From contig JAZNJU010000006.1 of assembly GCA_045578205.1 (NCBI GenBank), positions 350 to 64,349 on the forward strand: a DNA stretch of 64,000 nt, read 5' to 3'. The notes under the pieces are model-generated. The model did no database searches. It worked only from the letters and a program-made list of their open reading frames with translations, and was not told where the DNA came from. A program made the translations under genes and the position numbers. The DNA is from Clostridia bacterium. GTDB taxonomy: Bacteria; Bacillota; Clostridia; UMGS1810. Shown piece after piece: positions 21,572 to 64,000 of this stretch (within the stretch, counting starts at the first letter, position 1; each line of letters begins with the position of its first letter).

Positions 21572-21607
21572 TGTAGTTGTGATAAGTTGTGATGAAAGGA
21601 GACGGGT

Positions 21608-22246: not shown

Positions 22247-22255
22247 GAGGTAAAC

Positions 22256-34419: not shown

Positions 34420-34653
34420 ATGATAAGTATGAATTCGGTACTTCTCTTTTTTATGATAATGCTTGTCGGATTGTTTTTGCTTGTTGTTGCAATGCTGTTT
34501 ATCCAGCATGTAGAGCGAAAAGACCTCTACACAAGGATAATGAGCAAAAATCTTGCTGAATACAACAAGAGTGATAATGAGGCTCCAATACAACCAAAAA
34601 GCGCTCATGATAGGGTGCTTGAACGGTGGCGGAAGGGGCGTGACAGTAATTGA
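34420..34653 (+). CDS. Small membrane protein
   Basis: 77 aa, one N-terminal TM helix. Confidence 0.4.
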   Translation: MISMNSVLLFFMIMLVGLFLLVVAMLFIQHVERKDLYTRIMSKNLAEYNKSDNEAPIQPKSAHDRVLERWRKGRDSN

Positions 34654-39329: not shown

Positions 39330-39934
39330 AAATGTTTGAGTCGGGAATAACCGCAAAAGCATTTATTGAAAATTTAAAAATAGAGATAGATGTGGCACTT
39401 CCTATATCGGATGAAACCTATCTTGCGTGGTTAAATGCCACAGAACAGTTTCTGTACGGCTCTGTGATAAAAGAAGAGGGCTTACACCGCTTTTCGGGAA
39501 CAGAAATAGAATTGCCGATTAAGAGAACAAATGAAGCGGGAATATGCTCACACGATATAGTTACGGTGTATGCAGTGTTAACTCCGGTTCGGAGAGTACA
39601 ACTTTTGCACGTGACACCTGCAAACGCAGAGACCTTTAAAGATGTGTATTATGTTCTTGACGAAAATTTGTGTACAAGTTTGTCTTTCCCTTGCGAAGAT
39701 ATAGATTTGGTATATACCAAGAGACCTACTATAAAGACAGAGGAAAATTACACAAGTGAAACTGTAAAAATTCCCGTTGAGTTTATTGAACTTATCGCTT
39801 CAAAACTACGGGGTGAAGCATACAAACTTGCAAACGAGGATTCTATTGCCGGTAAGTGGCTCAATGATTACAATGCACATTTACAGGATTTCAGTGCTTG
39901 GTGCGTTTCCAAAAGAGCAGACATCGGAATGTGA
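39323..39934 (+). CDS. Virion structural protein (adaptor candidate)
   Basis: 203 aa, position only. Confidence 0.45.
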   Translation: MVEMFESGITAKAFIENLKIEIDVALPISDETYLAWLNATEQFLYGSVIKEEGLHRFSGTEIELPIKRTNEAGICSHDIVTVYAVLTPVRRVQLLHVTPANAETFKDVYYVLDENLCTSLSFPCEDIDLVYTKRPTIKTEENYTSETVKIPVEFIELIASKLRGEAYKLANEDSIAGKWLNDYNAHLQDFSAWCVSKRADIGM

Positions 39935-39942
39935 GGTGTCAT

Positions 39943-44034: not shown

Positions 44035-44056
44035 TATTTTAAACGGAGGTGTTTAT

Positions 44057-47000
44057 ATGTCACACGTACATAACATTACAGATACGGGCAGTATATTTGT
44101 TATTGATGCGACCACAAAGACAATAAAAAAACCTGCTGATGTGCCAAGAGTGGTGCAGGGAGACCACAACAGTGAGATACTTAGTTTTTCACTTAATGCG
44201 GTGTTGATTGAGGGTCATAATATGGCAGAATGTGACCGTTGTGAAATTCATTTTACCAACTTCAATCCCGAAACCGAAGAAAAGACAGAGGGAGTATATA
44301 AGGTTGAAGATTTAATGGTGAGCGAAGATGGTAGCAAGGTATTATTCTCTTGGAAAATATCAGATGAAGCCACGTGGATTTGGGGGGCACTTAGTTTTTC
44401 GGTAAAGTTCTTGTGCTTTGCAGAAGACGGAACAGTTTCATATGAGTGGAATACACTTACATCGGGTGGTATTCCCATTTATCCTGGCAAGAGCAATACG
44501 AGAACCGTTTTAGAAAAATACCCCGACTTCATAGAAAAGATAAAATTAACGGCAGATAAGTGTTATGAGACAGTAAACAAGACTTTGACTTATGAAATGA
44601 TTGGTGTAGTTCCTTCGCATAACGAATGGTTTACATTCACTCTTAATGCAGATGGAACAGGATATTCTGTTAAAGCCAATTTTGATAATGAAGATACAGA
44701 GAAAACGGATATTGTTATACCCTATAAGTACAAAGGTCTACCTGTTAATACAATATCAGCAGGTGCATTTGCAGATAAGGTTGGAGTGGTAAGTGTTGTA
44801 ATTCCGAATACAGTATCGACCATCGGAAGTAAAGCATTTCAAGGATGCTCAAGTCTTCAGAATGTTATATTGCCCAAAAACATTGCGGTTCTGAATTCTT
44901 CATTGTTTCAAGGCTGTACAGGGCTTACACATATTGACTTGCCAAAAGGCATAAAGGAAATTCAATACGATGTATTCCGTGAAACTGCAATCACACATAT
45001 GGATTTACCATACGGTATTGAGTATGTGGGCGAAACGCTTTTCTTTGGTTGTACCGCACTAAAAAGTGTCAACATTCCCAATTCTGTTAAGGAAATAAGA
45101 CCCCAAGCATTTGGGAAATGTTCAAGCCTTGTGGAAATAGTCATTCCAAACAGTGTTACTTCTATGGGAATTGGAATGTTCTCGCAATGTTCAAATTTGC
45201 GGTCAATGGTTATAGGAAACGGCATAACGACACTTGGTGGGCATTTTGCCTTGTATTGTGACAAATTAGAGCGAGTTGTTATTCCGTCATCGGTGACAAG
45301 CATAGAAAGTAATGCTTTTTGGAATAGAAGTTATGTGCCCAATCCAAACGTTACTTTGTATGTAGAGCAGGGCTCATATGCTGAGGAATATGCAAAGCAG
45401 TATAAGATGAAATATGTGTATAGTGAAGTTGGCAAAGATGCTATATCAGACAAGATAGCCGAAAGTCTTGAAGACGGTGGCACTGTCAATGAGTTTCTAA
45501 AGAATAATCAACCAGACTATAATCAAAATGATGAAACTAAGATTGACTATATTAAAAATAGACCATTTTATGAATATGTAGAGGAAACTACAAACGAGAC
45601 TATAGCATGTGAATTTACTCTCGGCGATTTTGCTTACTCTAATAAAACATATTTCTTGGGGCTAAAACCCGGGAACCCATATCAAATAAATCTTAAATGC
45701 TATAAAGATGATGAACTAATGAGTACTACAGAGGCTGAGTCAAAGGCAAGTTCTGTGGTTAAAGGTTATGGCGTATCTCTTACTTTGGATACAGATGATT
45801 ATTATATTAATATAGACGATAAAAGTGCTTCAGCATATCATAACAAATTTCCAGAACAATTCAACGGCATATATTTAAGTCAATACTGGAATTGGGTAGA
45901 GCATGAAATATTTGTATATGTAGACGGCATTGACCGATGTGTTCTGACAATAACAGGTGATTTTAGTAGAGTAAAGCCAAAATATCTTCCCACAAAGTTC
46001 ATAGAAGAGGGAGAAATATGTCCTCGACATTTAGGGAATTCAAATATACAAGCGATATTGTCTGGTTTATCCAAAGGGGCTGGGAATAACTGGCTTAGTT
46101 CACTGCGTTTGAAGAAAGACAGTGTCCCCTACATACTCGATGTAGATGAAAATGGTTTATTACGCACACGGCGTGAAAATGGTGATGGTTCTACATTTGA
46201 ATATGCAACAAGAGACGATGTCAAAAAATTGGCGCCACTGTCTGACTGGAATCAAGTTGACCCAACACAACCCGACTACATCAAGGGCAGACCTTTTTAT
46301 GAATCAAAGGTTGTTTTAATTGACGTCGATATACCACCTCATGACAACATAGATGAAACCGCTCTTTATTTTGATGTTGATAAGACGCTGCTGGCTGATG
46401 GTGCTATAGTGAGTTTTGAACTATTTGACGATGATGGCACTTATGGTGCGACACGAACTCTTACAGAAAACGACGAATTTCTCCAAGGAGCCCATTGGTA
46501 TGATGAACAGGTACAAGTGTTTTTTGTCTTCGTGACCGAAACAGGAATTTGTCTGCAAACACCTCTAATGATAAAACCTTTCAAATTCAAATTTACTGTT
46601 GTGACAAGAAAACTCCTGGACGAAAAATTCATTCCCGACACCATCGCAAGAACGGCAGATGTAGAAGGGTTAGAGAGCGTAGCAAAAGGTGCTGCAAGGT
46701 CTCATGTATATAAAACATATAAAGAAATGGCAGAGGCATTTGCGACTATGACCGCTGACGATGTAAGGGTTGGTGACCACATATATATTGAGCAATTAGG
46801 TGTTCCTGACTTGTGGATAAGCAAAGTGCACGAAACGCAACTTGAGGGCTATTATTATTACAATACTGATGAATCACTCATCCTAACGTTCGACGCGAAT
46901 GGAAGCGTGCCCGTTAATACTCCTTGGTTTGAAGTTTCTATGTCGGAATCCTCTAAGTTGAACACAGAGAATTCCACGCTAAAAGTTAAAATACCAGACG

Positions 47001-47146
47001 AATTTAGTGGCAACGTAACATTGGATAGTGAGCAACATTACCCATCAATGGCTATTATGAGTTATTACATTAACAAAGCAATTGAAGAAGCAATCGGTAC
47101 AGCAAACGCAGAACTTGAAAGCATACTCGCAGGAGGTGTTGACTAA
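44057..47146 (+). CDS. Multi-module receptor-binding/tail protein with BspA-type leucine-rich repeats
   Basis: About 1029 aa from ATG 44057 (RBS ggaggtg). The N-terminus VVQGDHNSEILSFSL is tentatively BppU_N-like. LRR_5-type repeats lie at approx. 44711-45325 (IPNTVSTIGSKAFQGCSSL..., IPNSVKEIRPQAFGKCSSL...). Two D[YW]NQ.D....DYIK.RPFYE junction motifs. Confidence 0.75.
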   Translation: MSHVHNITDTGSIFVIDATTKTIKKPADVPRVVQGDHNSEILSFSLNAVLIEGHNMAECDRCEIHFTNFNPETEEKTEGVYKVEDLMVSEDGSKVLFSWKISDEATWIWGALSFSVKFLCFAEDGTVSYEWNTLTSGGIPIYPGKSNTRTVLEKYPDFIEKIKLTADKCYETVNKTLTYEMIGVVPSHNEWFTFTLNADGTGYSVKANFDNEDTEKTDIVIPYKYKGLPVNTISAGAFADKVGVVSVVIPNTVSTIGSKAFQGCSSLQNVILPKNIAVLNSSLFQGCTGLTHIDLPKGIKEIQYDVFRETAITHMDLPYGIEYVGETLFFGCTALKSVNIPNSVKEIRPQAFGKCSSLVEIVIPNSVTSMGIGMFSQCSNLRSMVIGNGITTLGGHFALYCDKLERVVIPSSVTSIESNAFWNRSYVPNPNVTLYVEQGSYAEEYAKQYKMKYVYSEVGKDAISDKIAESLEDGGTVNEFLKNNQPDYNQNDETKIDYIKNRPFYEYVEETTNETIACEFTLGDFAYSNKTYFLGLKPGNPYQINLKCYKDDELMSTTEAESKASSVVKGYGVSLTLDTDDYYINIDDKSASAYHNKFPEQFNGIYLSQYWNWVEHEIFVYVDGIDRCVLTITGDFSRVKPKYLPTKFIEEGEICPRHLGNSNIQAILSGLSKGAGNNWLSSLRLKKDSVPYILDVDENGLLRTRRENGDGSTFEYATRDDVKKLAPLSDWNQVDPTQPDYIKGRPFYESKVVLIDVDIPPHDNIDETALYFDVDKTLLADGAIVSFELFDDDGTYGATRTLTENDEFLQGAHWYDEQVQVFFVFVTETGICLQTPLMIKPFKFKFTVVTRKLLDEKFIPDTIARTADVEGLESVAKGAARSHVYKTYKEMAEAFATMTADDVRVGDHIYIEQLGVPDLWISKVHETQLEGYYYYNTDESLILTFDANGSVPVNTPWFEVSMSESSKLNTENSTLKVKIPDEFSGNVTLDSEQHYPSMAIMSYYINKAIEEAIGTANAELESILAGGVD

Positions 47147-50580: not shown

Positions 50581-50901
50581 ATGGACAAGTTTATTTGTGT
50601 AATCATTTTTCTGCTCGGATTTGTGGCATTTTTTGTGTCTGTAGTTACCGAACTTACAAAAGAGATGTCGCTCTTAAAAAGGATACCTACAATATGGCAG
50701 GTGGTGGTACTATCTGTTAATGTATGGATTTTGATATTCTTCACTGCCTGCAGTCTGGGATATTGCCAAAGAGAATGGTATTTGCTTGTGGCTTCCGTAA
50801 TGGCAGGGTTTATGAGTGCGTTTATTGCTTCGTACGGTTGGGAGAAATTATATGTAAGATTTAAAGAGTATGTAAGAGGAGCGGATTCCAATGGTAAATA
50901 A
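50581..50901 (+). CDS. Holin
   Basis: 106 aa from ATG 50581 (RBS ggaggt). Three hydrophobic helices and a charged C-terminus. Directly precedes the endolysin. Confidence 0.7.
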   Translation: MDKFICVIIFLLGFVAFFVSVVTELTKEMSLLKRIPTIWQVVVLSVNVWILIFFTACSLGYCQREWYLLVASVMAGFMSAFIASYGWEKLYVRFKEYVRGADSNGK

Positions 50902-51601
50902 ACTCATACAAATCGCCCTTGCCGAAGTTGGATATCTTGAGAAGCGAAGTGCCGCTTCTCTTGATTCCAAAATCGACAATGCAGGGAGTAAGAATTACAC
51001 CAAGTATGCAAGGGATATGTGCAAATGCCACGCAGGAATATATGTCAACGGTTATGCCTGGTGTGACACCTTTGTAGACTGGTGCATGGTACAAGCCTTT
51101 GGTGTGGACAAGGCTCTGGAACTCATACACGGTTGGAGTGCATATACGCCTACATCTGCTTCGTACTATAAGCAACATGGCGAATGGCACAGCACACCTA
51201 AAAAGGGCGACCAGATATTTTTTAAAGACAGCACCGGCACTATATGTCACACGGGCATAGTTTACGATGTAGACAGTAACTATGTTTACACTGTAGAGGG
51301 TAACACCTCAACACAAAGCGGTGTTGTGGCAAACGGCGGTGCAGTCGCAAAGAAAAAATATGCTCTAACCTATAACAGAATAGCAGGATATGGAAGACCG
51401 AAGTATCCTGTTGCAAAGGAGGAAACAAAGAAGATGATTTATAACACTGTTAACGATTGCCCGGCATGGGCGAGACCTTATGTGCAGAAAGCCGTAGACA
51501 ATGGGTACATAAAAGGAGATGGCACAGGCAGTCTTAATCTCAACGATATGAAGATATGGTGCCTTGTGGTAATGCTCCGAATGTGCGGCATAATGGAGTG
51601 A
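50891..51601 (+). CDS. Endolysin: CHAP-type amidase/peptidase + C-terminal wall-binding (SLH-like) segment
   Basis: 236 aa. ...NGYAWCDTFVDWC... (Cys), ...ICHTGIVYDV...EGNTS (His). C-terminus WARPYVQKAVDNGYIKGDGTGSLNLND. Confidence 0.8.
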   Translation: MVNKLIQIALAEVGYLEKRSAASLDSKIDNAGSKNYTKYARDMCKCHAGIYVNGYAWCDTFVDWCMVQAFGVDKALELIHGWSAYTPTSASYYKQHGEWHSTPKKGDQIFFKDSTGTICHTGIVYDVDSNYVYTVEGNTSTQSGVVANGGAVAKKKYALTYNRIAGYGRPKYPVAKEETKKMIYNTVNDCPAWARPYVQKAVDNGYIKGDGTGSLNLNDMKIWCLVVMLRMCGIME

Positions 51602-51824: not shown

Positions 51825-51855
51825 AAATGCCGAGGTTGAAGCCTCGGCATTTTTA
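51825..51855 (+). terminator. Rho-independent terminator closing the lysis cassette
   Basis: 11-bp stem aaatgccgagg/cctcggcattt followed by a T-run. Confidence 0.75.
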
Positions 51856-51868
51856 TGCGTAACTGTTC

Positions 51869-51886
51869 AAATTGTCCGATAACCGA
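51869..51886 (+). promoter_or_regulatory. Conserved motif aattgtccgataacNgac, copy 2 (upstream of the post-lysis operon)
   Basis: The 14 nt are identical to 32047-32060. Its 3' half forms the left arm of a 13-bp hairpin (gataaccgactat 51877-51889 with atagtcggttatt 51914-51926) ending just before RBS gggagg. Confidence 0.45.
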
Positions 51887-51943
51887 CTATGCAAACTGAG
51901 ATAATTGATTTAGAATAGTCGGTTATTTTCGGGAGGTGGTTTA

Positions 51944-52615
51944 GTGCCGGATATTTCAAGGAGTAAATTCAGAAGTTTAATTCCCGATATCTCACTAAAA
52001 ACAAACTATGAGAGTCCTCTTAAAAAGTTGGGATTTTCTGCTGTGTCGGGAGCAGATGAACGCAAGAATGCATTGTTAAGCAAGTATAAGGCATATGCAG
52101 GCATGGGTCAGCAAAATTCAAATGCTACATCGGTGTCAACTATTACAAGGCAAGGTGCTGTATCGTCAAGTTATACTCCCGGCAGCAGGGTGGCTAATTC
52201 GGCTTCATACAATAACGATGCCGCCAAAGGACAATGTGTTTGGTATGTGCGAGGACGGGCAAAAGAAAAACTTGGTGTAGACACAGGTGCTATTGGTAAT
52301 GCAAATGAAATGTATTATAACGCAAAAGACTCTGCAAAGGTCTCTGCGAGTGCTGAGAACATAAAACCCAATATGATTGTTTCTTACAGTAAAGGTACAG
52401 GCTCTGCAGGTCAGACATACGGGCACGTAATATTCATTGAAGATGTTGTTGGAGATACGGTGTACTACACAGAAGGTGGAAGCGGATACTATCAAAATGG
52501 TACAGACGGAGTGGTAAAAACTGCAACAAAACAGGGTATTCTCGATGGCGTGAACACTTCGGGTGCAAGAATGGGAAGCGGAGTGTTGGGATTTATTGAT
52601 TTGACTAAATATTAA
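51944..52615 (+). CDS. CHAP-domain peptidoglycan hydrolase (virion-associated candidate)
   Basis: 223 aa, GTG start with RBS gggaggtgg. ...AAKGQCVWYVRGR... (Cys), ...YGHVIFIEDV... (His). Confidence 0.75.
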   Translation: MPDISRSKFRSLIPDISLKTNYESPLKKLGFSAVSGADERKNALLSKYKAYAGMGQQNSNATSVSTITRQGAVSSSYTPGSRVANSASYNNDAAKGQCVWYVRGRAKEKLGVDTGAIGNANEMYYNAKDSAKVSASAENIKPNMIVSYSKGTGSAGQTYGHVIFIEDVVGDTVYYTEGGSGYYQNGTDGVVKTATKQGILDGVNTSGARMGSGVLGFIDLTKY

Positions 52616-52632: not shown

Positions 52633-54081
52633 ATGGCTACAAAATATAGTCCATATGAATCTATCAAAAGTATTTATGACTTAAAAAAACAATGGGATGA
52701 CGAAAACAAGGCGGGAAACAGAAGCGGTGCAAGTGCTGTGGCACAAAACGCACAGCGATATTACAACGACCTAAAAAACAATGGATATGCTGATGTGGCA
52801 GAACAATTAAGTAAGGTCGATTATACCGGGGCAAAAGGCATACTTGATAAATATGCCGGAACTGGAGGCAAAACGGCAATAAGACCGTTTTTTCAAACAC
52901 TTGCTAAGTCTGCGAACCTTTCCGGAGATGAAGTAAACAATCTCATAAAATATGATGATAAGACAGGACACGTTTCATTTGCAGGAACTGACATTGGAAG
53001 ACCTGATGCGGCATCAGACGGTGTTTCTTACTGGGACAAAGACTATCTTAAGGGTGTTTGGGACAATTATGTGAAGAACAGCAAAGCAAACGACTACAAC
53101 GGTGTAAAAGGAAATGCCACTTACAACGATAGAATGGAAAGTTCTTCTAAAAAGAGCGATGAACAATATAATCAACTCAATGAACACAATGCATATGTCA
53201 GGAATGAATATGAAAAACTTCTGGCTCTTGCAAATACACCTTACTCAGAAAGTGAAGAGTACAAGACGGCTATGAAGGCAGTAATGCCGTATTACGATTA
53301 CGCCGGATACAAAGCATCTTATGGCGTCGCTGCCGATGGTGCTTCAACAAATAGCGGAAATGTGGACACATTTGCGGCTGCAAATGCAGCAAGACAACGT
53401 AATGCGCAGATATCGCAGGGAGCACAGATGGCATACCAACTTGGGTTGGCGCCTTATCAACAGAGGATTGAAAATATAAATAATATACTTTCTTCAATAG
53501 GTGCACAGAGAGAATCAATTACAGGTCAGCAGAATTCCAATATTACCAACGATATGACAATGGCGCAGATGGCATTTGATAACGGAGAGACACAGAGAAT
53601 AAACGAACACACTATGAACGAAGAGAAGTTGAATAATGCTACTGCAAGGAAAGAGGTTGATGCCGGTATAGAACTTGCTAAGGATACGCTTGCTGTGAAT
53701 AAGGAAGTTGATATGGCAAAGATTAATTCAAGTTCAAAACTCCAAGAACTTTCGAATGCATTGAACTTATCGCAAGAAGAGGCTAGACAAGCCATGTTTA
53801 CACTTTATGATAATTATTTGAAACACTGGGCGGTAGGCGATAAGGTGAGAAACTATATGGATGATGTAGTATTGCCTATTCTCATGGGTGAAAAAGAGAT
53901 GACACCCGCACAATTACAAACTGATATTGTTGCTAATACAGAAAAATACAATATTGATGTCGATGATGCAAAATATATATTGGGCGAGATATTTGGAGTG
54001 ACAGATTTATCTTGGTTAGATGATTATGAGGACAGGACCGGTGATGACCAATATAAAGGTATGCGTCCAAAGAGTAATTAG
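52633..54081 (+). CDS. Helical Asn/Gln/Ala-rich protein (internal virion/ejection protein candidate)
   Basis: 482 aa. No motif recognised. Confidence 0.5.
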   Translation: MATKYSPYESIKSIYDLKKQWDDENKAGNRSGASAVAQNAQRYYNDLKNNGYADVAEQLSKVDYTGAKGILDKYAGTGGKTAIRPFFQTLAKSANLSGDEVNNLIKYDDKTGHVSFAGTDIGRPDAASDGVSYWDKDYLKGVWDNYVKNSKANDYNGVKGNATYNDRMESSSKKSDEQYNQLNEHNAYVRNEYEKLLALANTPYSESEEYKTAMKAVMPYYDYAGYKASYGVAADGASTNSGNVDTFAAANAARQRNAQISQGAQMAYQLGLAPYQQRIENINNILSSIGAQRESITGQQNSNITNDMTMAQMAFDNGETQRINEHTMNEEKLNNATARKEVDAGIELAKDTLAVNKEVDMAKINSSSKLQELSNALNLSQEEARQAMFTLYDNYLKHWAVGDKVRNYMDDVVLPILMGEKEMTPAQLQTDIVANTEKYNIDVDDAKYILGEIFGVTDLSWLDDYEDRTGDDQYKGMRPKSN

Positions 54082-54098: not shown

Positions 54099-57000
54099 AT
54101 GTCAAATACAAAAAAACCAAACTTTTTGCGCCTTGCCGGAACAAAATCAAAGTATGGTCCGTATTTGCTTCCCGATGATAGTGTTTTGTGGGAGTTGCGC
54201 TCAGCAGATGGTAAATATTTTGGTGATGTCAGTTATGATGCTTATAAGGCTGTCGAGAATGGTACTCTTGACAGTTACACACCCAAAACCGACGAGGAAA
54301 GAAGAATAATAACGGAGTTTAGGCAACATCCGGGTATTGCATTGAAAATAGATGGGGCCAAGGCGCCTTGGAGAAGTGATTTTGGGAAAATAAGTTATGA
54401 CGGATATCACGCTTTATTAAGTGGCAAAGAGGGGGAATTTACACCATATACAGATTCAGAAAAAAAGGCAATAACAGATTTTAAAAATTATGTTGAGCGT
54501 CAAACCGGTCCCCGTTCTTCTGTTGTTATTAAAACGCCAAGTGGAACTGAGGATTATGTTACACGTGCTACTGCTAATGCTATTGCACGAGGTCCTTTGA
54601 TATCACCGAATTTACGTTCTTCTATTGGAGTTGACCGCGATTATGTGTCGAATTACTACTCACAAGCGAAAAAAATTGAAGATGAAGAAAAAGCAAAAGA
54701 ACGGCAGAAAAGGGTGGATAGTAATCCAACATACAAAAGATATGATATTGATCCTGCTGAATTCACTGAGAGTGATTTGGATGAATGGGCGAAAGAACAT
54801 AACTTTGAAAAAAAGTTTTTACCTTCTGACGCCGAAGCATCGTATGCCGGTAAATATGATTTAGGATATGTATATGTACCAAAACGTGAGGGTGGTTTTT
54901 GGGGAATTGGTAGCAAAAAACTAACTACAAAACAGGATGAAGAGGACCTTGATGTCTTATTTAAACTTGTAAATGATAGAATCAGGCAGGAAGGAATAGA
55001 TACAGATAAGTATGTGGCAGAACAAGCGTGGCTTACAACAAAGGGCATAGGCAGAAGTTTTCTCAATACTATAGATGATGCTTATATGCGAGAACAAGAA
55101 GAGTTTAGGCGAATGACATCTTCTATGAAAAATATAGATCCATATTTTGCTAGCGATAAAATTAAATACCATGATGAGCAAATCTCTACGACTACCAAGG
55201 CTATAAAAGACCGTACAACTAAACAGACAGTGGAGGGTTCGAAACTTGATACTAAATATTCACATTTATCCGAAGATACGCGAACTGTCGGGAAGGTAAT
55301 AGGTGGTTCGGTACAGGTCGTACCGTTGGTATTAACTTCAGCAATAAATCCCGCGTTGGGAACAGCAGTATTTGCTACACAAGTTTATGGAGGAAGTTTA
55401 GGGCAGGCGCTTGTGGAAGGCGCATCCATTAAAGATGCACGAACATATGCTGGTGCAGAAACTACAAAAGAGATATTGATAGAAAAGTTGTTCGGAGGAC
55501 TTCCTTTTACGAAAAGTGTTTCTAAAAAGTTTTTAAATCCTGTTGTAAATAAAATTTTCTCTAATCCATTTGCTAGGGAAATAGTTAAAAAAGGTGCCGA
55601 TATACTTGGTGAAGGATTTGAAGAGGCAGCATCTGAATTTATAAGCCCATATATAAAAAGGGCTATATATGACAAAAATGCTCCTAATGCAACCAAAGAA
55701 GAACTCGGGTTTGCGTTTTTCAGTGGTGTTGTTCCGTCAATGCTATTAAATGTTCCAGTGACTATAAATACTGTAAAAGCATATGGTGGGTTGGAAGAAA
55801 AAATAAACCAGTATAATAAGTGGATAGATGTTTTGCCGGAAACTGTGCGACCTGAATATCTTGATGTAAAAAAAACCACCATTGATGATTACAATAGTGC
55901 TGTAGACAATATGATAGTTGCGTCGTCAAAACATCATATTCAAGCAGAAAAAGAAGCAACAGAAGCGGCGGTGAAGTATTTTAATAGTGAGATAGAGAAA
56001 CTTCAAAAATTAAATTTAGACAATGCTGAAAATCAGGAACTTATAACTGGTTTCTCAAGGCATATTAATGCAAATAATGATTATGTCAATGACTTGGAAC
56101 ATCAGTTGAAAGAACTTGATTTAATCGAGCGCGGAAAAGATGATGGTACACTCATTCAAAAATACAAGAGTGAAAGTGTTGCATTAAAGGAATTGAATCC
56201 TACGCATATAGACATTGCGGTGGGTGCCAACAATGAAAAAGGGTTTGTGAACGTAACAAAGTTATCTGATAATACATATGCCGTCAAGACTGTTGATGGT
56301 AACACACTGTATAAATCCGATGTTCAATTTTCGGATAGATATGTTGAGTTAGAGGAAGCAAATATATCAAAAAAACATTTAGAAAAGTTTCTCGGTTCAG
56401 ACATAATAAAAACAGACGACGCAAAATCCTCTTCAACCATTGAGTCGAAGGAAGATGATATCGATGGCGTTTCGGAAGTAGAATTAAGTCTTCCACAAAA
56501 AGTTAATGAACAAGTTTTAAAAACTCTTCAAAGTAGTGACATCTCGAAAGGTGAAGCACGTATCCCGGTTGAAAACGTTATTAATCTTGTGAAATATCGA
56601 ACTGAAATCATTTCTGAAAAATATAGGTTAAAACCCGAAAATTTGTATGATGCTAATCTAGAAACTGTGTCAAGTAAAGACGGCATAATGATTACGGAAA
56701 ATGTCAAAATGCAATATGCCGATGCACTTGTACAGTCTATAAGACCGAACACAAATCTGTATTTGGAACTTACAGAAATTAGCGACGATGTAGGACAGTT
56801 CATATACGATACATACAAGCAAGGTGCAAAAGTTCAAATTTCCCCCAAAATTGACAATCTAATAAAAAGGTATGAGGACATATTGGGGGACGTGTCGAAA
56901 ACCGCTGTCGATATGCATCGAATTATATACGGAGATGTGTCAAATAATGTCGAGGGTGCAAATTCGACAAAATTTGTTTTGACAGGTGAAGGTACTGTAC

Positions 57001-60000
57001 CTAAAATGAGGGTAGAACCGAGCCAAAAGGACGTAGATGACGTTGTTTCTGCCATAAACGACACGCTTAAACAAAATTCGCTGCAAAGCCTTAGCGGTTA
57101 TATGAAAAAAGGCGGAAATATGTCGGATTTTGACGAACTTGGACGATTGTTAATAAATGGTTATTTGGAAAGCGGCAATATTGGAGATATCGGTAAATAC
57201 TTGCAAGATGGTGGACTAACAGTAATAAATGCCATAAAAAGAGTTGGAGGAAATGATTATGAATCTGAGAGAATTGCTCAAGGACGAGCCTTTCGTGACA
57301 CTTCCGATGTGGAACGGGCAGTTAGCGAGCGTGCCCAAGAACATAGCGAAGGAATTTCAAGAGAGACAGGAGATGCTCAAGGCCCAGTACCGGAAGGAAC
57401 AATCCGAAAACAGATAGATGATATAGTCTACAATGAGGTGCAAAGGGAATTCTATACAAAGGGTATGGTAGCTCTTGAAAATTTGAATAAAGATAAATAT
57501 AGTGTAGATACTATATACTTCTCCGGTACTGCGATTGACAGTGTCGGTACAAGATTAAACGGATTTTATTTCGAGGGTGTGCTTTATCTGCAAATCGATT
57601 CTGCTCATTCATTAAAGAGTATAAGGGATCATGAAGTAACACATCATTTCGGAAAAAGTAAAGCATATGAAAACTTCCGTAAGGCAGTTAAAGCCAAAAT
57701 GTCTGTTGAGAAATTCAATGAGTGGAAAGCTGAGGTTCGCCTTGCATACAGAGATTTGGTTACAGATTATCTTGCAAAAAAATTTAAAAAGTCCGGAAGG
57801 ACACTTACCAATGAGCAACTGCAGGAACTTATGGACAATTATCTCGAAGAAGAAATGATGGCCAATCTCAATGCGGAAACCGTTAATTTTGCAAAAGAGT
57901 ATGCAAAGGAAATTGCCGATTTCCGAAACGGAATTGAAATGACAACCGATAACTCTAACACGAAAGTTTCTTCTGAGAGTAAGGCAGAAAACAAACCTGG
58001 TGAGTATGTAAGGCAAATCGATGCAGGAGGAGATGTAAAGTATAGTTTCTCCGAAAGAGAAGAGGGAATGTTATACACCTTGGATGATCTAAAGGGGAAT
58101 GCCGGTATTCTTTATAATAACGGGAAAACCATAAGAATTCCCGATACAGATATGGGTGTTTTGCTTCACACATATAAAACGGAAGAACACTATTCTAACA
58201 GAACAGAAGGAATAATTGATTGCATATCTTGTTCGGGAAGAGGAGACACAAAACATTATTTCTATGTGTTTTATAAGGGAGAAGACGGTCGTGTAGCACC
58301 TATATTTAGACTTGATTATTCATATTTGAACAACTACATTGATGAAGTAAGAAAAATATCGGAAGAATTGGGGTATGACAGAAATGAATTTGTCAATGGA
58401 AATGAAAGAATTCGTGGTCAGTTTACTAAAGTTAAGAGTGTCGGAGGAAACGGTAGCTTTGATGCTGATGCTTCTACCAGAGGAAGAACAGAAACGGAAA
58501 CTAGCTCGCTATCTAACGACCTTCGAGGAAGAAGTAGTGGAGAAGTACGAGACCAATCCCAATATAGTGAACGAGATAGTTTTGGATTATCTGATGAACA
58601 ACATAAAAGGAACGGGGATAGGGATTCCAACGGAAGATTAAGCAAATTACCTGATAGTGAAAATGCATCGGATAAGGTTGATAATAGTGATGTTCCTCGC
58701 CGTAGCATAGTTGGTATAAAATCACTTACGGCAGACAAGGAAGCATACAATAAGGCTGTCGAAATGGATAAACAAGGCTATGACATTGAGGAACTATGGA
58801 AAGAAACCGGATGGTCTAAAGGCGTAGACGGGCATTTCAAGACCGAACTTGATGATAGTAAATATGAATTTACGATGCCCTCTACCGCAAAAGAAAATCT
58901 GTATGTAAAAGACTTCGTAAAGCATGACGAACTTTTTGCGGCATATCCACAAATAAAAGATATTCCTGTTTTATATGATGAAAATATGGATGACGATGGC
59001 GAAGCATCGTATTTGCCAAATATAGGAGAACATATAGCTGGTGTGGGTGACCTTGGTATTATACGCATAAATCCTCAAAAGAGTATATATGAATTGAAAA
59101 AAAGCATGCTTCATGAATTACAACATGTTATTCAATTTATAGAGGGATTTGAACAAGGTGCATCAGAAAGTTATTGGCGCCAAAGAATAAAAGAGGGTTA
59201 TGACATTGGTAATATCGATGACTATCTTCAGTTAAATGTTTCCCCGGCACATCAGCTATACGAAGATACCGCGGGAGAAAGAGAAGCTCGCGATGTAGTA
59301 GACAGAATGAATTTTACACTTGAACAAAGAAAAAATACTTTTCCTTATTCCATGGACGATTCTGAGGGAGTTGTTTTTGCAGATGGTTCATCTGTGGCGG
59401 CATTTAAAAAGGAAACAAAACAGAACGGTGTTATGTGGACTATACAGCAAGGCATACTTGACAAAAAAGAGGTTGCTGCGTTTTATTCAAAGGTGTCGGA
59501 ACTTAGGAATAATAAGTATCGTACATTTAGACAAAGCTCAGATGGTGACTATATCTTTTCTGTTGACAATAAGCTAATATATTCAGATGCAGATTATGAA
59601 TATCCGAAAATTAAGACAGTCATAACATTTGAGACAGATGATGAAAATTTGATCGATTATGCAAGGGAGTGTTTCTATGAAGGAGAAACTTACGGACGAA
59701 GGATTGAAGATACTAAAAAGATTGCTGAAATTATGCTCGGAGAAGGAACTATCAAGCGAGCAAATTATAATCCTAATGGAACCGATGAAAGAGTGTCAAA
59801 CTATAGCAGAGAAAGTGAAAGTGGCACAACGGCTGATAGCAGAAGTGGAGAAGATGTAAGGCGTTCCATTTCCACCGACACTCAAGATCGCATTGAGAAG
59901 ATAGCCAAAGAAGAAGTATTCCACGAAGAGCTTACAGAACTTGCGAGGAAGAACAAGCAGGAATTTATATCCCGTATTCGTCATAATGAGCAACTCCAAA

Positions 60001-63000
60001 AGAGACTTGATAATGCTCAAAGGCAGATGCGCCTTACAAAAGTGCCCTTGGCAGACAGGGCAAAGGTAGAAAAGTTCATAAAGAGCATTGTTACCAATAT
60101 GCATTCTGTAATAAATCCTAGGGATATTCACGCAGAAGTGCTGAGTATATACGACGAGTATATTGCTGCAGTTAAAAAAGCAGGCAATGTTCCTGAAAGT
60201 GTACAGAGTGCTACCGACAATATGGTTAAGCGGTTTACCGATGTGGCAGCAGATATTATTGATAATGCGCAGGATGTTGCAGTAGACGAGGATTTTGCAA
60301 GGCTCAAAGGGTGGTTAAAGAACACGGATATCAAATTTCCGGATGACGCAAAGGCGGAGGCACATTTTGCAGAATTCCGTAAAAAGCATTTTGGCTCAAT
60401 TAGTCTTACTAACGACGGACTGCCTATTGACATGGCATATAATGAGTTATGCGAAGTATTCCCATATATCTTCAACAAATCTGTTACTGCACCTGCAGAC
60501 CAGTTAAATGCTATTGCAGATGCTTTGCAGGCATTAAAGCCGGAAACATATAACCCGCATGCAGAATACATAGAGGATGCTATTGAGCATGTTGTCAGTC
60601 TCTTTGTATTGGAAGCAGATGGTATATCCGTAACCAAAGACACACGCGCAGACAGGCTTGTAAAAAAAGCAGAGAGCCAAAAAGCGACGGCCCTTGAAAA
60701 GCAAAAAGAAGCTTTCAAAAGACAGTATGATAGGCACAAAGAAAAATCGGATGAGCAGATAAATAAGCTTAAGGAACAGCTTAAGGCTCATAGCTATACT
60801 CAGTACTGGGAACGCAGATTATCTTCCGAAGAAAAATCCGCAGCAATCAAAACCGTACGCCAAAGACAAAAGATTTCTATGGCAAAGGCACATATCCGCA
60901 AAATGGTATCTGAACTAAAACACGGTCTTGATACCACAGAAAAAAGCGGTGGTATTCCCAAGGAGCTTGTCAAGGCAATAGCTGAGGTGTGTTCTGTAAT
61001 TGATTTCCATACCGACCGTACCACACCAGAGGGCGATGTAACAAAGGCAAGTCTTAAACTGGATGCTCTGCAGGTACAGTATGACAACCTTAAAAACAAT
61101 ACTGATTACGACATTCAGAGCGAGTGGCACGAGGAAATAAGCGAATACATAAGACAACTGAATGATACTGTGCGCAATAAATGCGTTGTTGACTTAAATC
61201 TTATGGAACTGTCTGCTTTGGAAGATATACTTGTGCAGATACGCCATACCATATCCAATGCCAAAAAACAGATTGGTATAGATTCTGCTTTGGAAAACAG
61301 AGAGATAGGCATGAAGATATGTGAAGACTTAAATGGCAAGGAGGATTTCATTGCTCCTACCAAAAAGATGCTTGTCAAAAGACTTGGCACAAATGTCTTT
61401 GCAGCAAACACTCTTAGTCCCATGCGTGTTGCGGAAATGATTTCCGGATATAACAGAGATGGAGAATTCTATAAGCTTTTCCGTCAGCTCAACGATGGCG
61501 TCCACAAAGGGGATATGTTTAAAATGGATGCCACAAAGCCATTTAATGTGCTTATGGAAGGCCCTGGAAACCAAGCGCTTATGTATGATTTCCTTATACA
61601 GTTGCACGATACAGGAATTAAAGATACAAAGGGAAATATTGTAATGTTATCCAAAAACATGATATGCGAGGTTATAATGCTCTGGGAGCGTAAGCAGGGA
61701 AGAGAGCACCTTGGGACTGGGGGCATGACAATCCCGAATATCAAGTTATTTAATACCGGCAAAACACAGGAAGCCTATACCGAGGGTGCTGTGAGGACCG
61801 TGGCAATTACAGAACGGGACATAACAAGACTTCGTTCAATGCTCGACTCTTATGACAAAGCCTGGATAGAAGAAGCAAGAATATTGTTTAACGAAAAATC
61901 ACAAAAGGCAATTAACGAGACTTCACTTCAGTTGGTCGGAAGAACAATTGCTAATGCGAAGAACTATATACCCATACATACTGACACGAAATTTGTACGC
62001 ACAGATATAGAAGGACTCAAGGTTGATGCAACTTTGGAAGGTGCAGGTTCTCTTAAAGCGGTGGTAGAAAACGCGAAGCAGCCTATACTTATAACAGGAA
62101 TATCCTATTCAACGAGTGAACACATAGATTTTGTGGCGAAATACCACGGACTTGCAATTCCCATAAGAAACTTCAACAAAGTTTACAATGTGACGTTTGC
62201 TGATGAAAACGATACCACGCAGAGCGTGAAGGACACAATCGGTCACAAGTGGGGTGCCAAGATACAAAAGGGAGTTATAGAACAGACATTAAAGGATTTG
62301 CAGACTACCAGAAACAGAGAGAGGGATGTATTCAACAAGGTAATGGGTACCATACAGAGTAATTGGGTAGGGGCTACTTTGAATTCTAATCCTTCTGTAG
62401 CACTTAAACAGCTTACATCTTATGTTACTGCAAGTTCTGTGCTCGGAAGTACGCCTCTTGTAAAGGCTCTGCCGTATTTTTCAAATACAAAAGCTACTGT
62501 AGAAGAGATAGATCGTTACACGGGGATACACTTTAAACGAAGATTGGGATATTCTACCCAGGAACTTGGAGACCGTGCAAACCGAAAAACAGGACAAGGA
62601 CTTGCAAATAAGGCTCGTAAGGCAATGAGCCAATCTCAAATAACAGCGTGGGTTAATCATCTTCCGAAGGGCTTTTTCCCGACTAACTGGATGCAGTCTG
62701 TAGATTGTAGGGTGGCAGCTGTTTTGTGGGAGGCTTCCAAGTATTATGTAAGCGACACTCTTGGTATTGCAAAGGAAAGTGAAAATTACTGGAAAGAGGT
62801 AACGCGGATTTATGAGTGCACCATAGAAGAGACACAGTCAAATTATGACATACTTCATAAACCGGAAGTGTTAAAGAGTACAAGCGAGATGACAAGGCTC
62901 ATATCAATGTTCCAAAATGATGCCCTACAGGGTTCGGGACTTTTGTGGACGGCGTTTAATGATTGGAATACAAAGCATCACAGCTACAAGTCGGACTCCA

Positions 63001-64000
63001 CCGCCGAAAACAAAAAAGACTTGGAAATGGCTCAAGAACGCTTCAAAAAAGTTGCTTTTGCACAGATTTCCTCCGCTCTTACTCTCGCAACACTAACACT
63101 TGTTGCAAGGGCGCTTCTCCGAAAAGTCAAGCCATATAAAGATGAGGAAAAGAACGAAGTTAATGCTGGCAGTATATCCAAGCAGGTGGGAATGGATACT
63201 CTTGAAAATCTTTTTACTAACGCTATTCCAGTGCTCGGTAATTTGCTTGTTTCAGCAAAAGATACATTCGTATACGGCTATGACTTTGCATCGGTACCCA
63301 CTTTTGACACTGTGCAGAATTTGATTGATTCGATATCCGGTGTGTACGATGTTATTGACAAGTGGGATATAACCGCAGGTGAAGATAAATGGAACAAGGT
63401 CCGCGGGGCTCTTAATGAACTTGCTATAAGTGCGGCAACCTCATTTGGTATACCAGCACAGAATGTAATTAATATGTTTAATGGCGTAAAAGGATATGTC
63501 GGAGATATTAAAGAGGGAGATTTCTTCCATGATATAAACGAGATTATTGCCACGAATCGCAGGGTGTTCTCTTATGCCGATCTTGCTTCGGCCGTTGCAA
63601 CAGGTGACCGTAAGAAAGAACAGAAAATTCTGGAGTACTACAAAAACATTGGTGTAGAGGTGCAAAAGAGTTCCCTTACGACACAACTTAAGCCTGCATA
63701 TGTTAAGTGTTTTGTAGATGAGCCGGAAAAGGCCTATGCTATCCGAAAATCGCTGGTCCTCAGGTACGATTATAGTGATGATGTGTTCGATGAATGGATT
63801 TATGATGATTATGTGAATGCGCTATTGTCAGATAAAGAAGAATATGCTGCAGAGTTGGAAAACGCCACAAAACACCATGGAATTTCCTTAAAGTACGAAG
63901 ATATCCGTTCATCTCTTGGTAAAGCCTACCGTGATGTATATGCAAACAATCCCGAAGAAGCAACGAAAGTTCGAAATTTACTGTCTAAAAAGTATTGCAA
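54099..64000 (+). CDS. Giant multi-domain protein (>3,300 aa, 3' end outside the window) with two HExxH zincin modules; polyvalent-protein-like
   Basis: Hand-translated from ATG 54099 to the window end with no stop, which is why it is absent from the ORF track. Gly-zipper/hydrophobic segment at approx. 55296-55430. HEVTH at 57630-57644. WKETGWSKGVDGHFKTEL...MLHELQHVIQFIEGF...GEREARD with HELQH at 59112-59126. Long coiled-coil stretches. Confidence 0.8.
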   Translation, partial: MSNTKKPNFLRLAGTKSKYGPYLLPDDSVLWELRSADGKYFGDVSYDAYKAVENGTLDSYTPKTDEERRIITEFRQHPGIALKIDGAKAPWRSDFGKISYDGYHALLSGKEGEFTPYTDSEKKAITDFKNYVERQTGPRSSVVIKTPSGTEDYVTRATANAIARGPLISPNLRSSIGVDRDYVSNYYSQAKKIEDEEKAKERQKRVDSNPTYKRYDIDPAEFTESDLDEWAKEHNFEKKFLPSDAEASYAGKYDLGYVYVPKREGGFWGIGSKKLTTKQDEEDLDVLFKLVNDRIRQEGIDTDKYVAEQAWLTTKGIGRSFLNTIDDAYMREQEEFRRMTSSMKNIDPYFASDKIKYHDEQISTTTKAIKDRTTKQTVEGSKLDTKYSHLSEDTRTVGKVIGGSVQVVPLVLTSAINPALGTAVFATQVYGGSLGQALVEGASIKDARTYAGAETTKEILIEKLFGGLPFTKSVSKKFLNPVVNKIFSNPFAREIVKKGADILGEGFEEAASEFISPYIKRAIYDKNAPNATKEELGFAFFSGVVPSMLLNVPVTINTVKAYGGLEEKINQYNKWIDVLPETVRPEYLDVKKTTIDDYNSAVDNMIVASSKHHIQAEKEATEAAVKYFNSEIEKLQKLNLDNAENQELITGFSRHINANNDYVNDLEHQLKELDLIERGKDDGTLIQKYKSESVALKELNPTHIDIAVGANNEKGFVNVTKLSDNTYAVKTVDGNTLYKSDVQFSDRYVELEEANISKKHLEKFLGSDIIKTDDAKSSSTIESKEDDIDGVSEVELSLPQKVNEQVLKTLQSSDISKGEARIPVENVINLVKYRTEIISEKYRLKPENLYDANLETVSSKDGIMITENVKMQYADALVQSIRPNTNLYLELTEISDDVGQFIYDTYKQGAKVQISPKIDNLIKRYEDILGDVSKTAVDMHRIIYGDVSNNVEGANSTKFVLTGEGTVPKMRVEPSQKDVDDVVSAINDTLKQNSLQSLSGYMKKGGNMSDFDELGRLLINGYLESGNIGDIGKYLQDGGLTVINAIKRVGGNDYESERIAQGRAFRDTSDVERAVSERAQEHSEGISRETGDAQGPVPEGTIRKQIDDIVYNEVQREFYTKGMVALENLNKDKYSVDTIYFSGTAIDSVGTRLNGFYFEGVLYLQIDSAHSLKSIRDHEVTHHFGKSKAYENFRKAVKAKMSVEKFNEWKAEVRLAYRDLVTDYLAKKFKKSGRTLTNEQLQELMDNYLEEEMMANLNAETVNFAKEYAKEIADFRNGIEMTTDNSNTKVSSESKAENKPGEYVRQIDAGGDVKYSFSEREEGMLYTLDDLKGNAGILYNNGKTIRIPDTDMGVLLHTYKTEEHYSNRTEGIIDCISCSGRGDTKHYFYVFYKGEDGRVAPIFRLDYSYLNNYIDEVRKISEELGYDRNEFVNGNERIRGQFTKVKSVGGNGSFDADASTRGRTETETSSLSNDLRGRSSGEVRDQSQYSERDSFGLSDEQHKRNGDRDSNGRLSKLPDSENASDKVDNSDVPRRSIVGIKSLTADKEAYNKAVEMDKQGYDIEELWKETGWSKGVDGHFKTELDDSKYEFTMPSTAKENLYVKDFVKHDELFAAYPQIKDIPVLYDENMDDDGEASYLPNIGEHIAGVGDLGIIRINPQKSIYELKKSMLHELQHVIQFIEGFEQGASESYWRQRIKEGYDIGNIDDYLQLNVSPAHQLYEDTAGEREARDVVDRMNFTLEQRKNTFPYSMDDSEGVVFADGSSVAAFKKETKQNGVMWTIQQGILDKKEVAAFYSKVSELRNNKYRTFRQSSDGDYIFSVDNKLIYSDADYEYPKIKTVITFETDDENLIDYARECFYEGETYGRRIEDTKKIAEIMLGEGTIKRANYNPNGTDERVSNYSRESESGTTADSRSGEDVRRSISTDTQDRIEKIAKEEVFHEELTELARKNKQEFISRIRHNEQLQKRLDNAQRQMRLTKVPLADRAKVEKFIKSIVTNMHSVINPRDIHAEVLSIYDEYIAAVKKAGNVPESVQSATDNMVKRFTDVAADIIDNAQDVAVDEDFARLKGWLKNTDIKFPDDAKAEAHFAEFRKKHFGSISLTNDGLPIDMAYNELCEVFPYIFNKSVTAPADQLNAIADALQALKPETYNPHAEYIEDAIEHVVSLFVLEADGISVTKDTRADRLVKKAESQKATALEKQKEAFKRQYDRHKEKSDEQINKLKEQLKAHSYTQYWERRLSSEEKSAAIKTVRQRQKISMAKAHIRKMVSELKHGLDTTEKSGGIPKELVKAIAEVCSVIDFHTDRTTPEGDVTKASLKLDALQVQYDNLKNNTDYDIQSEWHEEISEYIRQLNDTVRNKCVVDLNLMELSALEDILVQIRHTISNAKKQIGIDSALENREIGMKICEDLNGKEDFIAPTKKMLVKRLGTNVFAANTLSPMRVAEMISGYNRDGEFYKLFRQLNDGVHKGDMFKMDATKPFNVLMEGPGNQALMYDFLIQLHDTGIKDTKGNIVMLSKNMICEVIMLWERKQGREHLGTGGMTIPNIKLFNTGKTQEAYTEGAVRTVAITERDITRLRSMLDSYDKAWIEEARILFNEKSQKAINETSLQLVGRTIANAKNYIPIHTDTKFVRTDIEGLKVDATLEGAGSLKAVVENAKQPILITGISYSTSEHIDFVAKYHGLAIPIRNFNKVYNVTFADENDTTQSVKDTIGHKWGAKIQKGVIEQTLKDLQTTRNRERDVFNKVMGTIQSNWVGATLNSNPSVALKQLTSYVTASSVLGSTPLVKALPYFSNTKATVEEIDRYTGIHFKRRLGYSTQELGDRANRKTGQGLANKARKAMSQSQITAWVNHLPKGFFPTNWMQSVDCRVAAVLWEASKYYVSDTLGIAKESENYWKEVTRIYECTIEETQSNYDILHKPEVLKSTSEMTRLISMFQNDALQGSGLLWTAFNDWNTKHHSYKSDSTAENKKDLEMAQERFKKVAFAQISSALTLATLTLVARALLRKVKPYKDEEKNEVNAGSISKQVGMDTLENLFTNAIPVLGNLLVSAKDTFVYGYDFASVPTFDTVQNLIDSISGVYDVIDKWDITAGEDKWNKVRGALNELAISAATSFGIPAQNVINMFNGVKGYVGDIKEGDFFHDINEIIATNRRVFSYADLASAVATGDRKKEQKILEYYKNIGVEVQKSSLTTQLKPAYVKCFVDEPEKAYAIRKSLVLRYDYSDDVFDEWIYDDYVNALLSDKEEYAAELENATKHHGISLKYEDIRSSLGKAYRDVYANNPEEATKVRNLLSKKYC

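Follow-up and report, generated by a model that had tools for sequence, protein, structure and literature searches.

The stretch of DNA analysed here, which we call the window, comprises 64,000 nucleotides (nt) of a contig from a Clostridia bacterium (JAZNJU010000006.1) and ends inside a giant open reading frame (ORF) that encodes a real but fairly typical polyvalent protein of a prophage, of a class proposed to be packed by phages and injected along with their DNA. As the initial annotation had claimed, the frame is open on the forward strand from an ATG at 54099 to the window edge at 64000, which amounts to 3,300 codons in translation and zero stops. The other five frames contain 96, 103, 189, 193 and 337 stops across the same 9.9 kb, so the open frame goes beyond what chance would give. 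Between an in-frame TAA at 54075-54077 and ATG 54099 there is no other start codon, and a GGGGG run resembling a Shine-Dalgarno sequence is found 7 nt 5' of the ATG; the TAG of the preceding gene occupies 54079-54081.

A homologous ORF of 3,370 codons is present, uninterrupted and single, on a contig of a Clostridia metagenome-assembled genome (MAG) (JAZURE010000067.1, here L009). Its protein is about 90% identical to the window protein across amino acids (aa) 1530-3299, and the ratio of nonsynonymous to synonymous substitution rates (dN/dS) between the two genes is 0.11 overall and 0.07-0.16 in each segment of aa 1540-3299. An exhaustive HMMER search with aa 1090-1430 as query returned only 16 representatives among 1.84 billion, six of which are themselves single proteins of 2,653-3,512 aa. 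The open frame, the L009 ORF, the dN/dS values and the six giant relatives together establish a real gene under selection, of about 3,330-3,350 codons. The C-terminus had been described as open-ended, which holds in so far as the window contains no stop, but the gene is nearly complete: the L009 ORF stops 31 residues past the last aligned residue (window aa 3299), and alignment to L009 and to the related proteins P0001, P0002 and P0017 places only about 30-50 codons beyond the window edge, for an expected full length of about 3,330-3,350 aa.

The protein can be divided into the following parts, some of which recur in the homologous genes of two further loci, L001 and L002, and in other relatives.

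54156-54488 (+), N-terminal region, aa 20-130, with two copies of the motif SYDAY..NGTLDSYTPKT..E..II..F
55287-55778 (+), Gly/Ala-rich hydrophobic block, aa 397-560, with hydrophobic 19-mers at aa 407 and 536
57216-57386 (+), charged low-complexity linker 1, aa 1040-1096, recognised by composition and aligning with a similar linker in L001
57396-57953 (+), module 1, aa 1100-1285, a predicted gluzincin-like metallopeptidase
58068-58418 (+), module X, aa 1324-1440, GILYNNG...HYFYVFYKGEDGRVAPIFRLDY, a domain that is mobile and outside the Pfam families
58419-58688 (+), Ser/Arg/Asp/Gly low-complexity linker 2, aa 1441-1530, a recombination breakpoint relative to L009
58713-58871 (+), LPD23 domain, aa 1539-1591 (Pfam PF18838)
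58896-59333 (+), module 2, aa 1600-1745, a putative zincin-like metallopeptidase
59415-59876 (+), module Y, aa 1773-1926, of no known family, with a short charged linker at its end
59877-63998 (+), conserved C-terminal region, aa 1927-3300, predicted to be almost all-helical

The peptides that the initial annotation had read from the frame are all present, namely VIGGSVQVV at aa 400, HEVTH at aa 1178, WKETGWSKG at aa 1567, SMLHELQH at aa 1669 and GEREARD at aa 1726. So are the low-complexity Ser/Arg/Asp linkers: the residues S, R, D, G, N and E make up 54% of aa 1001-1100 and 61% of aa 1401-1500, and a third linker of this kind spans aa 1891-1926. The HExxH motif occurs only twice in the protein (aa 1178 and aa 1672), and LPD23 is its only Pfam domain above threshold. 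Neither PDB sequences nor NCBIfam yielded a match to the full-length protein, and annotated phages and plasmids yielded none to the giant ORF in nucleotide searches; in IMG/VR and JGI metagenomes, pattern scans for module 1 and for the C-terminus returned no loci.

LPD23 (aa 1539-1591) is recognised with an E-value of 6e-14 and 52 bits against a cut-off of 27. The second module had been likened to the metallopeptidases of polyvalent proteins on the strength of a run of peptides that begins with WKETGW. Its zincin character stands, although LPD23 itself covers the WKETGW part, some 80 residues 5' of the HExxH motif, and does not lie on that motif. Module 2 proper has an invariant H1609, the active-site candidate HELQH at aa 1672-1676 (nt 59112-59126) and a GEREAR sequence with E1727. 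Ten homologs, among them Pseudomonas phage H66 gp60, Bacillus phage Dartukuta gp57, USP_25 gp31 and a protein of phage AF, keep H1609, the HExQH at 1672-1676, an EGF sequence and GExEAR with E1727. All but one of the ten match both LPD23 and DUF6782, a Pfam metallopeptidase family (best E 4e-8), and three match Peptidase_M78; for DUF6782 the related protein P0021 scores 30.8 bits, where the cut-off is 27. A module 2 profile found only a non-significant IrrE among PDB sequences (E 1.1), and an indexed protein search with module 2 alone as query found no match.

Module 1 contains HEVTH at aa 1178-1182 (nt 57630-57644) and a candidate third ligand, E1252 (nt 57852-57854). In an alignment of nine divergent homologs (16-59% identity), the only invariant columns are H1178, E1179, H1182 and E1252. 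An AlphaFold2 model built on this alignment has a predicted local distance difference test (pLDDT) score of 83.5 and a predicted template-modelling score of 0.78, and orders the module as a helix, three strands, the HExxH helix, a helical insert and a helix with E1252. This order matches the zincin core as described, with its N-terminal helix, three-stranded sheet, HExxH helix and Glu helix (PMC5512222). Pfam gives only faint matches to M78 and eCIS_core, in single members (E 0.016-0.03), the best hit of the module 1 profile among PDB sequences is a non-significant selecase (E 0.9), and Foldseek with the model against PDB retrieves neither a zincin nor any other match (best E 0.35). A library of predicted viral structures gave, as its best hits to the model, segments of other polyvalent proteins of phages (E 2e-4 to 0.08), carrying the annotations LPD, MuF_C, PolyVal ART, SNF2 and IrrE-like. 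By conservation, module 1 looks like a peptidase common to the family; it is probably a gluzincin of a clade outside current family models, an assignment that comes from motif and predicted topology only. Both HExxH sites thus appear to behave as zincin active sites, with conservation of the gluzincin type.

The C-terminal region matches phrog_22978, a 3,513-position profile with no assigned function, over aa 1891-3129 (E 1e-61), and the core that it has in common with distant relatives spans aa 2430-3130 (nt 61386-63488). It contains one hydrophobic helix at aa 2985-3003 (nt 63051-63107). Where the initial annotation had named long coiled coils, the AlphaFold2 model of the C-terminal 1,011 aa, which is poor (pLDDT 47.5), predicts helices almost throughout, and is used here for the secondary-structure trend only. 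With its combined 3Di and amino-acid score, Foldseek matched the model in the viral fold library BFVD to the final segments of many large proteins from uncultured phages, annotated as PolyVal ART, LPD-containing, MuF_C or nuclease, at E-values as low as 2e-28 and 13-27% identity across about 1,000 columns; several of these proteins had first segments that matched module 1. As the TM-scores are only 0.17-0.19, we take these matches as homology and not as a fold assignment. A profile of the C-terminus found no significant match among all PDB chains. The C-terminal scaffold is thus a module that is widespread among the polyvalent proteins of phages and for which there is no Pfam family.

Relatives of the giant protein keep the N-terminus, module 1 and the helical C-terminus of about 1,400 residues, and vary in the cassettes between them. 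By BLAST, P0017 (3,325 aa) follows the window protein collinearly over aa 5-101, 1058-1312 and 1919-3279 (45% identity over the last of these) and differs at window aa 1313-1918, where it carries MutS_I and ART-PolyVal. P0015 (3,272 aa) has window aa 798-1939 in common at 44-49% identity, including LPD23, contains module Y in three tandem copies, and ends in a C-terminus that is unrelated to that of the window and contains MuF_C. Module Y is also found once in P0020. Module X occurs in P0012-P0014, P0019 and P0021-P0027, alone or with LPD3, LPD23, ART-PolyVal or PBECR5, and in P0012 the order of module X and the LPD23/peptidase module is reversed. From aa 1530 on, L009 and the window protein are over 90% identical; identity is 48% in aa 800-1310 and about 20% in the part that precedes, and module X is missing from L009.

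Conservation of the outer parts reaches further still. C-terminal identity is 40-45% to P0001, P0002, P0017 and P0018, and 20-23%, over aa 2430-3130, to P0003-P0011 and P0024, which have LPD3, ART-PolyVal and MuF_C 5' of the shared core. MuF_C is carried by P0006, P0008, P0015 and P0016. The N-terminal motif region is conserved (BLAST) at the N-termini of the upstream ORFs of L001 and L002 and of P0017, P0018 and P0020, and may possibly serve as a virion-targeting signal. The Gly/Ala-rich block is weakly conserved in distant members, with 33% identity to aa 123-243 of P0006/P0008 and matches to P0015 and P0024. The breakpoints of this mosaic coincide with the linkers rich in S, R, D, G, N and E at aa 1040-1096, 1441-1530 and 1891-1926. 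These alignments indicate that modules are exchanged between relatives on a conserved chassis.

The giant gene belongs to an element with the following landmarks, which occupy the window to the right of a host part that includes a HIGH_NTase1 protein gene (11342-12484).

12560-12635, intact tRNA-Lys(CTT) gene, left end of the prophage
12758-13798 (-), tyrosine integrase, adjoining the tRNA-Lys gene
32512-34068 (+), large terminase (TerL)
34650-36671 (+), portal protein of the P22/SU10 type
37680-38858 (+), major capsid protein
44021-47146 (+), BspA-type leucine-rich-repeat protein of 1,041 aa (LRR_5, E 1e-51; also two PHROGs without function)
50891-51601 (+), endolysin
51825-51858 (+), GC-rich hairpin with T-run, terminator-like, between the lysis cassette and the trio of CHAP, 482-aa and giant genes
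51944-52615 (+), CHAP-domain peptidoglycan hydrolase of 223 aa (Pfam CHAP, E 9e-12), first gene of the trio
52633-54081 (+), upstream partner of 482 aa, of no known family, directly 5' of the giant gene

The CHAP, 482-aa and giant genes are separated by gaps of 17 nt and lie on the same strand as the late genes. L009 has the same three-gene arrangement. The close relatives L001 and L002 have genes for a holin, an amidase and NlpC/P60 or CHAP, then one of about 550 aa, and after it the giant gene and a serine recombinase. A serine recombinase in the equivalent position, as opposed to the tyrosine integrase of the window, means that the integration module has been exchanged. The CHAP protein is 64% identical to that of L002 and 78% to that of L009, and the 482-aa partner, which is always directly upstream of the giant gene, 80% to its counterpart in L009 and 32-36% to those in L001/L002. 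Because it is additional to the endolysin, the CHAP hydrolase can be regarded as a candidate virion-associated lysin. The terminator-like hairpin after the lysis cassette reads AAATGCCGAGG-TTGAAG-CCTCGGCATTTTT, and a second inverted repeat (AACCGACTAT ... ATAGTCGGTT) lies just 5' of the ribosome-binding site GGGAGGTGG of the CHAP gene (window 51825-51943 for the whole stretch); the trio may be a separately regulated unit.

The right end of the element can be read from L009, where a hairpin with T-run follows the stop of the giant gene immediately, then a 121-aa minus-strand ORF, and where the 26 nt at the 3' end of the window tRNA-Lys gene recur unchanged (attR) about 500 nt 3' of the giant gene; the attR region, holding the 3' part of the tRNA-Lys gene, is 12965-13021 of L009. 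With integrase and tRNA-Lys on the left and attR in L009 on the right, the element amounts to a prophage of about 52 kb, whose late genes end with the giant gene, which takes up about 19% of the genome. L009 also contains, at 13008-13282, two direct copies of a 116-nt element that are 92% identical, have a 159-nt spacing and start in the tRNA 3' end at attR; possibly they are tandem att-like remnants of successive integrations.

Between 39323 and 49937, nearly all genes are without a PHROG or Pfam family, with the exception of the 1,041-aa leucine-rich-repeat protein in the tail region, which is probably the receptor-binding protein of this gut phage. The nearest annotated portals, from Arthrobacter and Microbacterium phages, are only 21-25% identical, and the virion module is that of a poorly described lineage. 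Library scans detected no tape-measure, tail-tube or sheath family among the prophage proteins. Given the family of the portal, and with no tail-tube or tape-measure matches, we infer a podovirus-like virion. In a distant prophage, L011, which encodes P0010, the giant gene lies inside the structural module, downstream of a P22/SU10 portal. A 620-aa protein of the window (39898-41760) is 26% identical to a 670-aa protein at the same relative position in L011. At the end of its late region, L011 also has a reverse transcriptase of the group II intron type (RVT_1 and GIIM, 21363-22631).

Two antisense ORFs lie within the giant gene, at 55385-55882 (-) with 165 aa and at 60128-60739 (-) with 203 aa, and L009 has an antisense ORF of 218 aa at the place equivalent to the latter. 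We dismiss them as genes because dS is not lowered (0.38) in the stretch that holds 60128-60739 (-), the only one of the antisense ORFs checked. Probably they are by-products of the purine-rich, highly conserved sense strand.

The giant genes of L001 and L002 each contain exactly one in-frame TAG (L001, 9959-9961; L002, 9998-10000), at which gene callers split them into products of 1207 and 2208 aa in L001 and of 2063 and 2038 aa in L002. The TAG of L001 is inside the module 1 peptidase, 19 residues before HExxH (FY*TGVLYIQ, compared with FYFEGVLYLQ in the window), and, in the alignment, faces a Tyr codon of P0017, so that a point mutation or assembly error could account for it; the TAG of L002 is directly followed by an ATG. 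All nine other genes of L001 end in TAA; in the window and L002, TAG is an ordinary stop codon. A suppressor tRNA was not found in the DNA examined. With one TAG per gene, TAG as a normal stop and no suppressor tRNA, we did not adopt a recoding of the stop codon. The TAGs could be due to point mutation or assembly error, to amber suppression, or to a genuine two-gene form. The last of these has a parallel in phage F116, whose counterpart of H66 gp60 is split into two genes (PMC4819975), much like the split giant genes of L001 and L002.

The initial annotation had called the frame a giant, polyvalent-like protein with two zincin-type modules, and LPD23, the domain-bearing homologs, the shuffling of modules and the gluzincin-type conservation of both HExxH sites all bear this out. 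Membership in the polyvalent class is shown by LPD23 above its cut-off, by the prophage context and by homologs with ART-PolyVal, LPD3, MuF_C, MutS_I and PBECR5. Like the polyvalent proteins defined by Iyer, Burroughs, Anand, de Souza and Aravind (2017; PMC5512222), the window protein has LPD23, two modules of the metallopeptidase (MPTase) type, linkers and a late-gene neighbourhood. Unlike them, it matches no Pfam polyvalent domain in its N-terminal 1,000 aa, in X, in Y or in its 1,400-aa C-terminus, and no curated MPTase model in module 1. As in the phage versions of polyvalent proteins, the giant gene is near the late and virion genes, following those for capsid, tail and lysis in the window and lying within the structural module of L011. 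The domain-wise profile search that the initial annotation had proposed found LPD23 by Pfam in the window protein and ART in homologs, but neither a MuF domain (no match to Phage_Mu_F or MuF_C in Pfam at E-values up to 1) nor PLxRFG, for which NCBIfam gave no match and a regular expression no motif in the window protein; H66 gp60 has one at aa 3108.

Large phage proteins that are packaged and injected include P1 DarB and the MuF-fused toxins. The virion RNA polymerase gp50 of N4 and DdrB of P1 embody the same concept, as large MPTase-bearing proteins inside the capsid that are delivered with the DNA (PMC5512222), and the C-terminal MPTase of DdrB is predicted to carry out its known proteolytic processing before packaging (PMC5512222). 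In contrast to the N4 and P1 proteins, Pfam finds no RNA polymerase, methylase/helicase, ParB or MuF N-terminal domain in the window giant. H66 gp60 (3,787 aa), Dartukuta gp57 (4,203 aa) and USP_25 gp31 (4,899 aa) have LPD23 and the HExQH module in common with it, at 25-27% identity over about 215 aa, and the giant genes of H66 and Dartukuta are beside or close to lysis genes, as in the window. The GenBank record of H66 gp60 gives it as a virion protein verified by mass spectrometry, and the protein is classified as a homolog of internal virion protein D, or IVP-D, that hosts domains destined for the cytoplasm, as N4 gp50 does (Hardies et al., 2016; PMC4819975). Outside module 2, however, these three giants have no detectable likeness to the window protein, which is also without PLxRFG or a methylase site, and the hosts of these phages are Gram-negative or Bacillus, as opposed to a gut Clostridia host here. 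Only size, helicity and virus type are common to the window protein and podovirus IVP-D. In podoviruses of Microbacterium cluster EK2, one gene of 13,464 bp makes up 25% of the genome (PMC8281081), and Arthrobacter phage Adat encodes an 1,803-aa gp26 directly before the lysis genes and has no annotated tape measure; its portal is only 21-25% like that of the window. These giants, both from phages in which no tape measure is annotated, resemble the window giant in gene size and setting.

Together, our data suggest a model, which we think is on balance the correct one, in which the giant gene encodes a packaged and ejected polyvalent protein of a podovirus-like temperate phage, made of a conserved chassis, exchangeable middle cassettes and self-processing peptidases. 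The chassis would consist of the N-terminal motif, the Gly/Ala-rich block, the gluzincin-like peptidase of module 1 and the helical C-terminus of about 1,400 aa with its one hydrophobic helix; the cassettes of this copy would be module X, LPD23 with the second zincin, and module Y, flanked by low-complexity linkers. The protein would be made late, packed into the capsid with the CHAP hydrolase and the 482-aa partner, and ejected ahead of or with the DNA. Its hydrophobic and helical parts, together with the CHAP hydrolase, might then help to cross or bridge the envelope, as internal virion proteins of podoviruses do. One or both peptidases may cut the polyprotein at the linkers and so free the cassettes into the cell, linker cutting being the role that has been proposed for MPTases (PMC5512222). 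Packaging is suggested by the late position, by the MuF_C fusions in relatives and by the module 2 that is common to the virion protein H66 gp60; ejection, autoprocessing and any effect on host defence are likewise argued by analogy.

Several observations weigh against this model. Packaging, ejection and cleavage are proposed by analogy and not from direct evidence. Module 1 is without a significant match to any Pfam family or solved structure, and the window copy of module 2 alone stays sub-threshold on DUF6782 (E 0.03), so that its metallopeptidase membership is one of transitive homology. The hidden Markov model of the C-terminus family detects no relationship to the giant proteins H66 gp60 and Dartukuta gp57, for which reason we rejected membership in the IVP-D family; as the C-terminus has no homology to PDB chains either, a role as ejection protein is assigned to it by analogy only. 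The podovirus-like morphology is deduced in a lineage in which most structural genes match no family, and the terminator-like hairpin splits the trio from the lysis genes, which bears on the timing of expression. Finally, polyvalent proteins combine biochemically disparate activities, and only two peptidase-type modules and no non-peptidase enzyme can be recognised in this copy, modules X and Y and both termini having no assigned activity and ART and a nuclease being found in relatives. The description as a multi-effector protein therefore suits the family, with its ART and other domains, better than this copy, and a role against host defences is a family-level expectation.

A bolder version of the model is that the chassis and the CHAP and 480-aa genes form a previously undescribed system of ejection and cargo delivery in a podovirus-like lineage of Clostridia, one that functionally replaces internal virion proteins of the T7 and P22 type, with effector cassettes swapped by recombination at linkers and released by the built-in peptidase, and with the amber codons of two relatives perhaps giving two products per gene; this we regard as a tentative proposal, less probable than not. 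Still less probable, although to be taken seriously, is that the protein is chiefly a structural ejection protein like T7 gp15/gp16, P22 gp16/gp20 or a tape measure, which builds a conduit for DNA across the envelope and uses its peptidases for maturation only. The very large, predicted all-helical C-terminus, the hydrophobic segments at aa 407, 536 and 2985, the linkage to a CHAP hydrolase and the lack of any other recognised candidate for an ejection protein or tape-measure gene would all be in keeping with it, and such proteins do host extra domains in N4 and H66 (PMC4819975). However, there is no similarity to solved ejection proteins, or to the IVP-D-containing H66 gp60 outside module 2, and the swapping of the middle for enzymatic cassettes (ART, LPD3 and others) in relatives argues for delivery of cargo besides structure. 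A structural role of this kind overlaps with the packaged polyvalent protein that we favour and does not exclude it.

That the gene is instead an accessory gene expressed from the prophage and not packaged, for superinfection exclusion, defence, toxicity or lysogenic conversion (a moron), strikes us as improbable. Its place as the last gene before attR, the terminator-like hairpin 5' of the trio, and the suggestion that hosts may retain polyvalent proteins against incoming elements (PMC5512222) are compatible with such a role, but the gene is on the strand of the late genes with 17-nt gaps, the trio is contiguous with holin and endolysin genes in L001/L002, and the L011 homolog sits in the middle of a structural module; moreover, PADLOC assigned no defence family to the giant protein or its two upstream partners, and Pfam and NCBIfam scans recognised no signal peptide or toxin domain in the giant protein. 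The initial annotation had itself named two ways in which it might be wrong, a frame that falls apart into ordinary genes on resequencing and an ordinary tape measure without enzymatic modules, and both are effectively excluded. For an artefact of assembly or a decaying pseudogene that is not translated as one protein, one could cite the in-frame TAG in each of L001 and L002 and the split F116 counterpart of H66 gp60; the intact 3,370-codon ORF on the independent L009 contig, the six relatives of 2,653-3,512 aa that are single proteins, the dN/dS of 0.11 and zero stops as against 96-337 in other frames leave very little room for it. The length of a tape-measure protein translates into about 0.15 nm of tail per residue, so that 3,330 aa would imply, by our estimate, a tail of some 500 nm. 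The Gly/Ala-rich hydrophobic segments and long helices recall the tape measures of long-tailed phages, and Foldseek gives weak, non-significant matches to them (E 0.02-0.2, probability about 0.1), yet Pfam, PHROGs and NCBIfam give no match to a tape-measure family, the gene comes after the lysis cassette and not between those for tail chaperones and baseplate, the portal is a P22/SU10 one, and LPD23 and two peptidase modules are present.

The packaged polyvalent protein that we favour seems to be biologically important, judging by its cost: where about one fifth of a prophage genome is devoted to one gene, that gene must matter to the phage. The finding overturns nothing that was known. It delimits three modules that Pfam does not cover, namely X, Y and the C-terminal scaffold, together with a peptidase clade that is invisible to current models, and the delimitation of modules should be useful for annotating the giant "hypothetical" genes of gut phages. 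The window, L009, P0015 and P0017 amount to a natural experiment, in which a near-identical chassis carries different middle cassettes in related gut phages. This set of chassis and cassettes makes testable the idea at the centre of the polyvalent concept, namely that a built-in zincin would cut an injected polyprotein into separate effectors.

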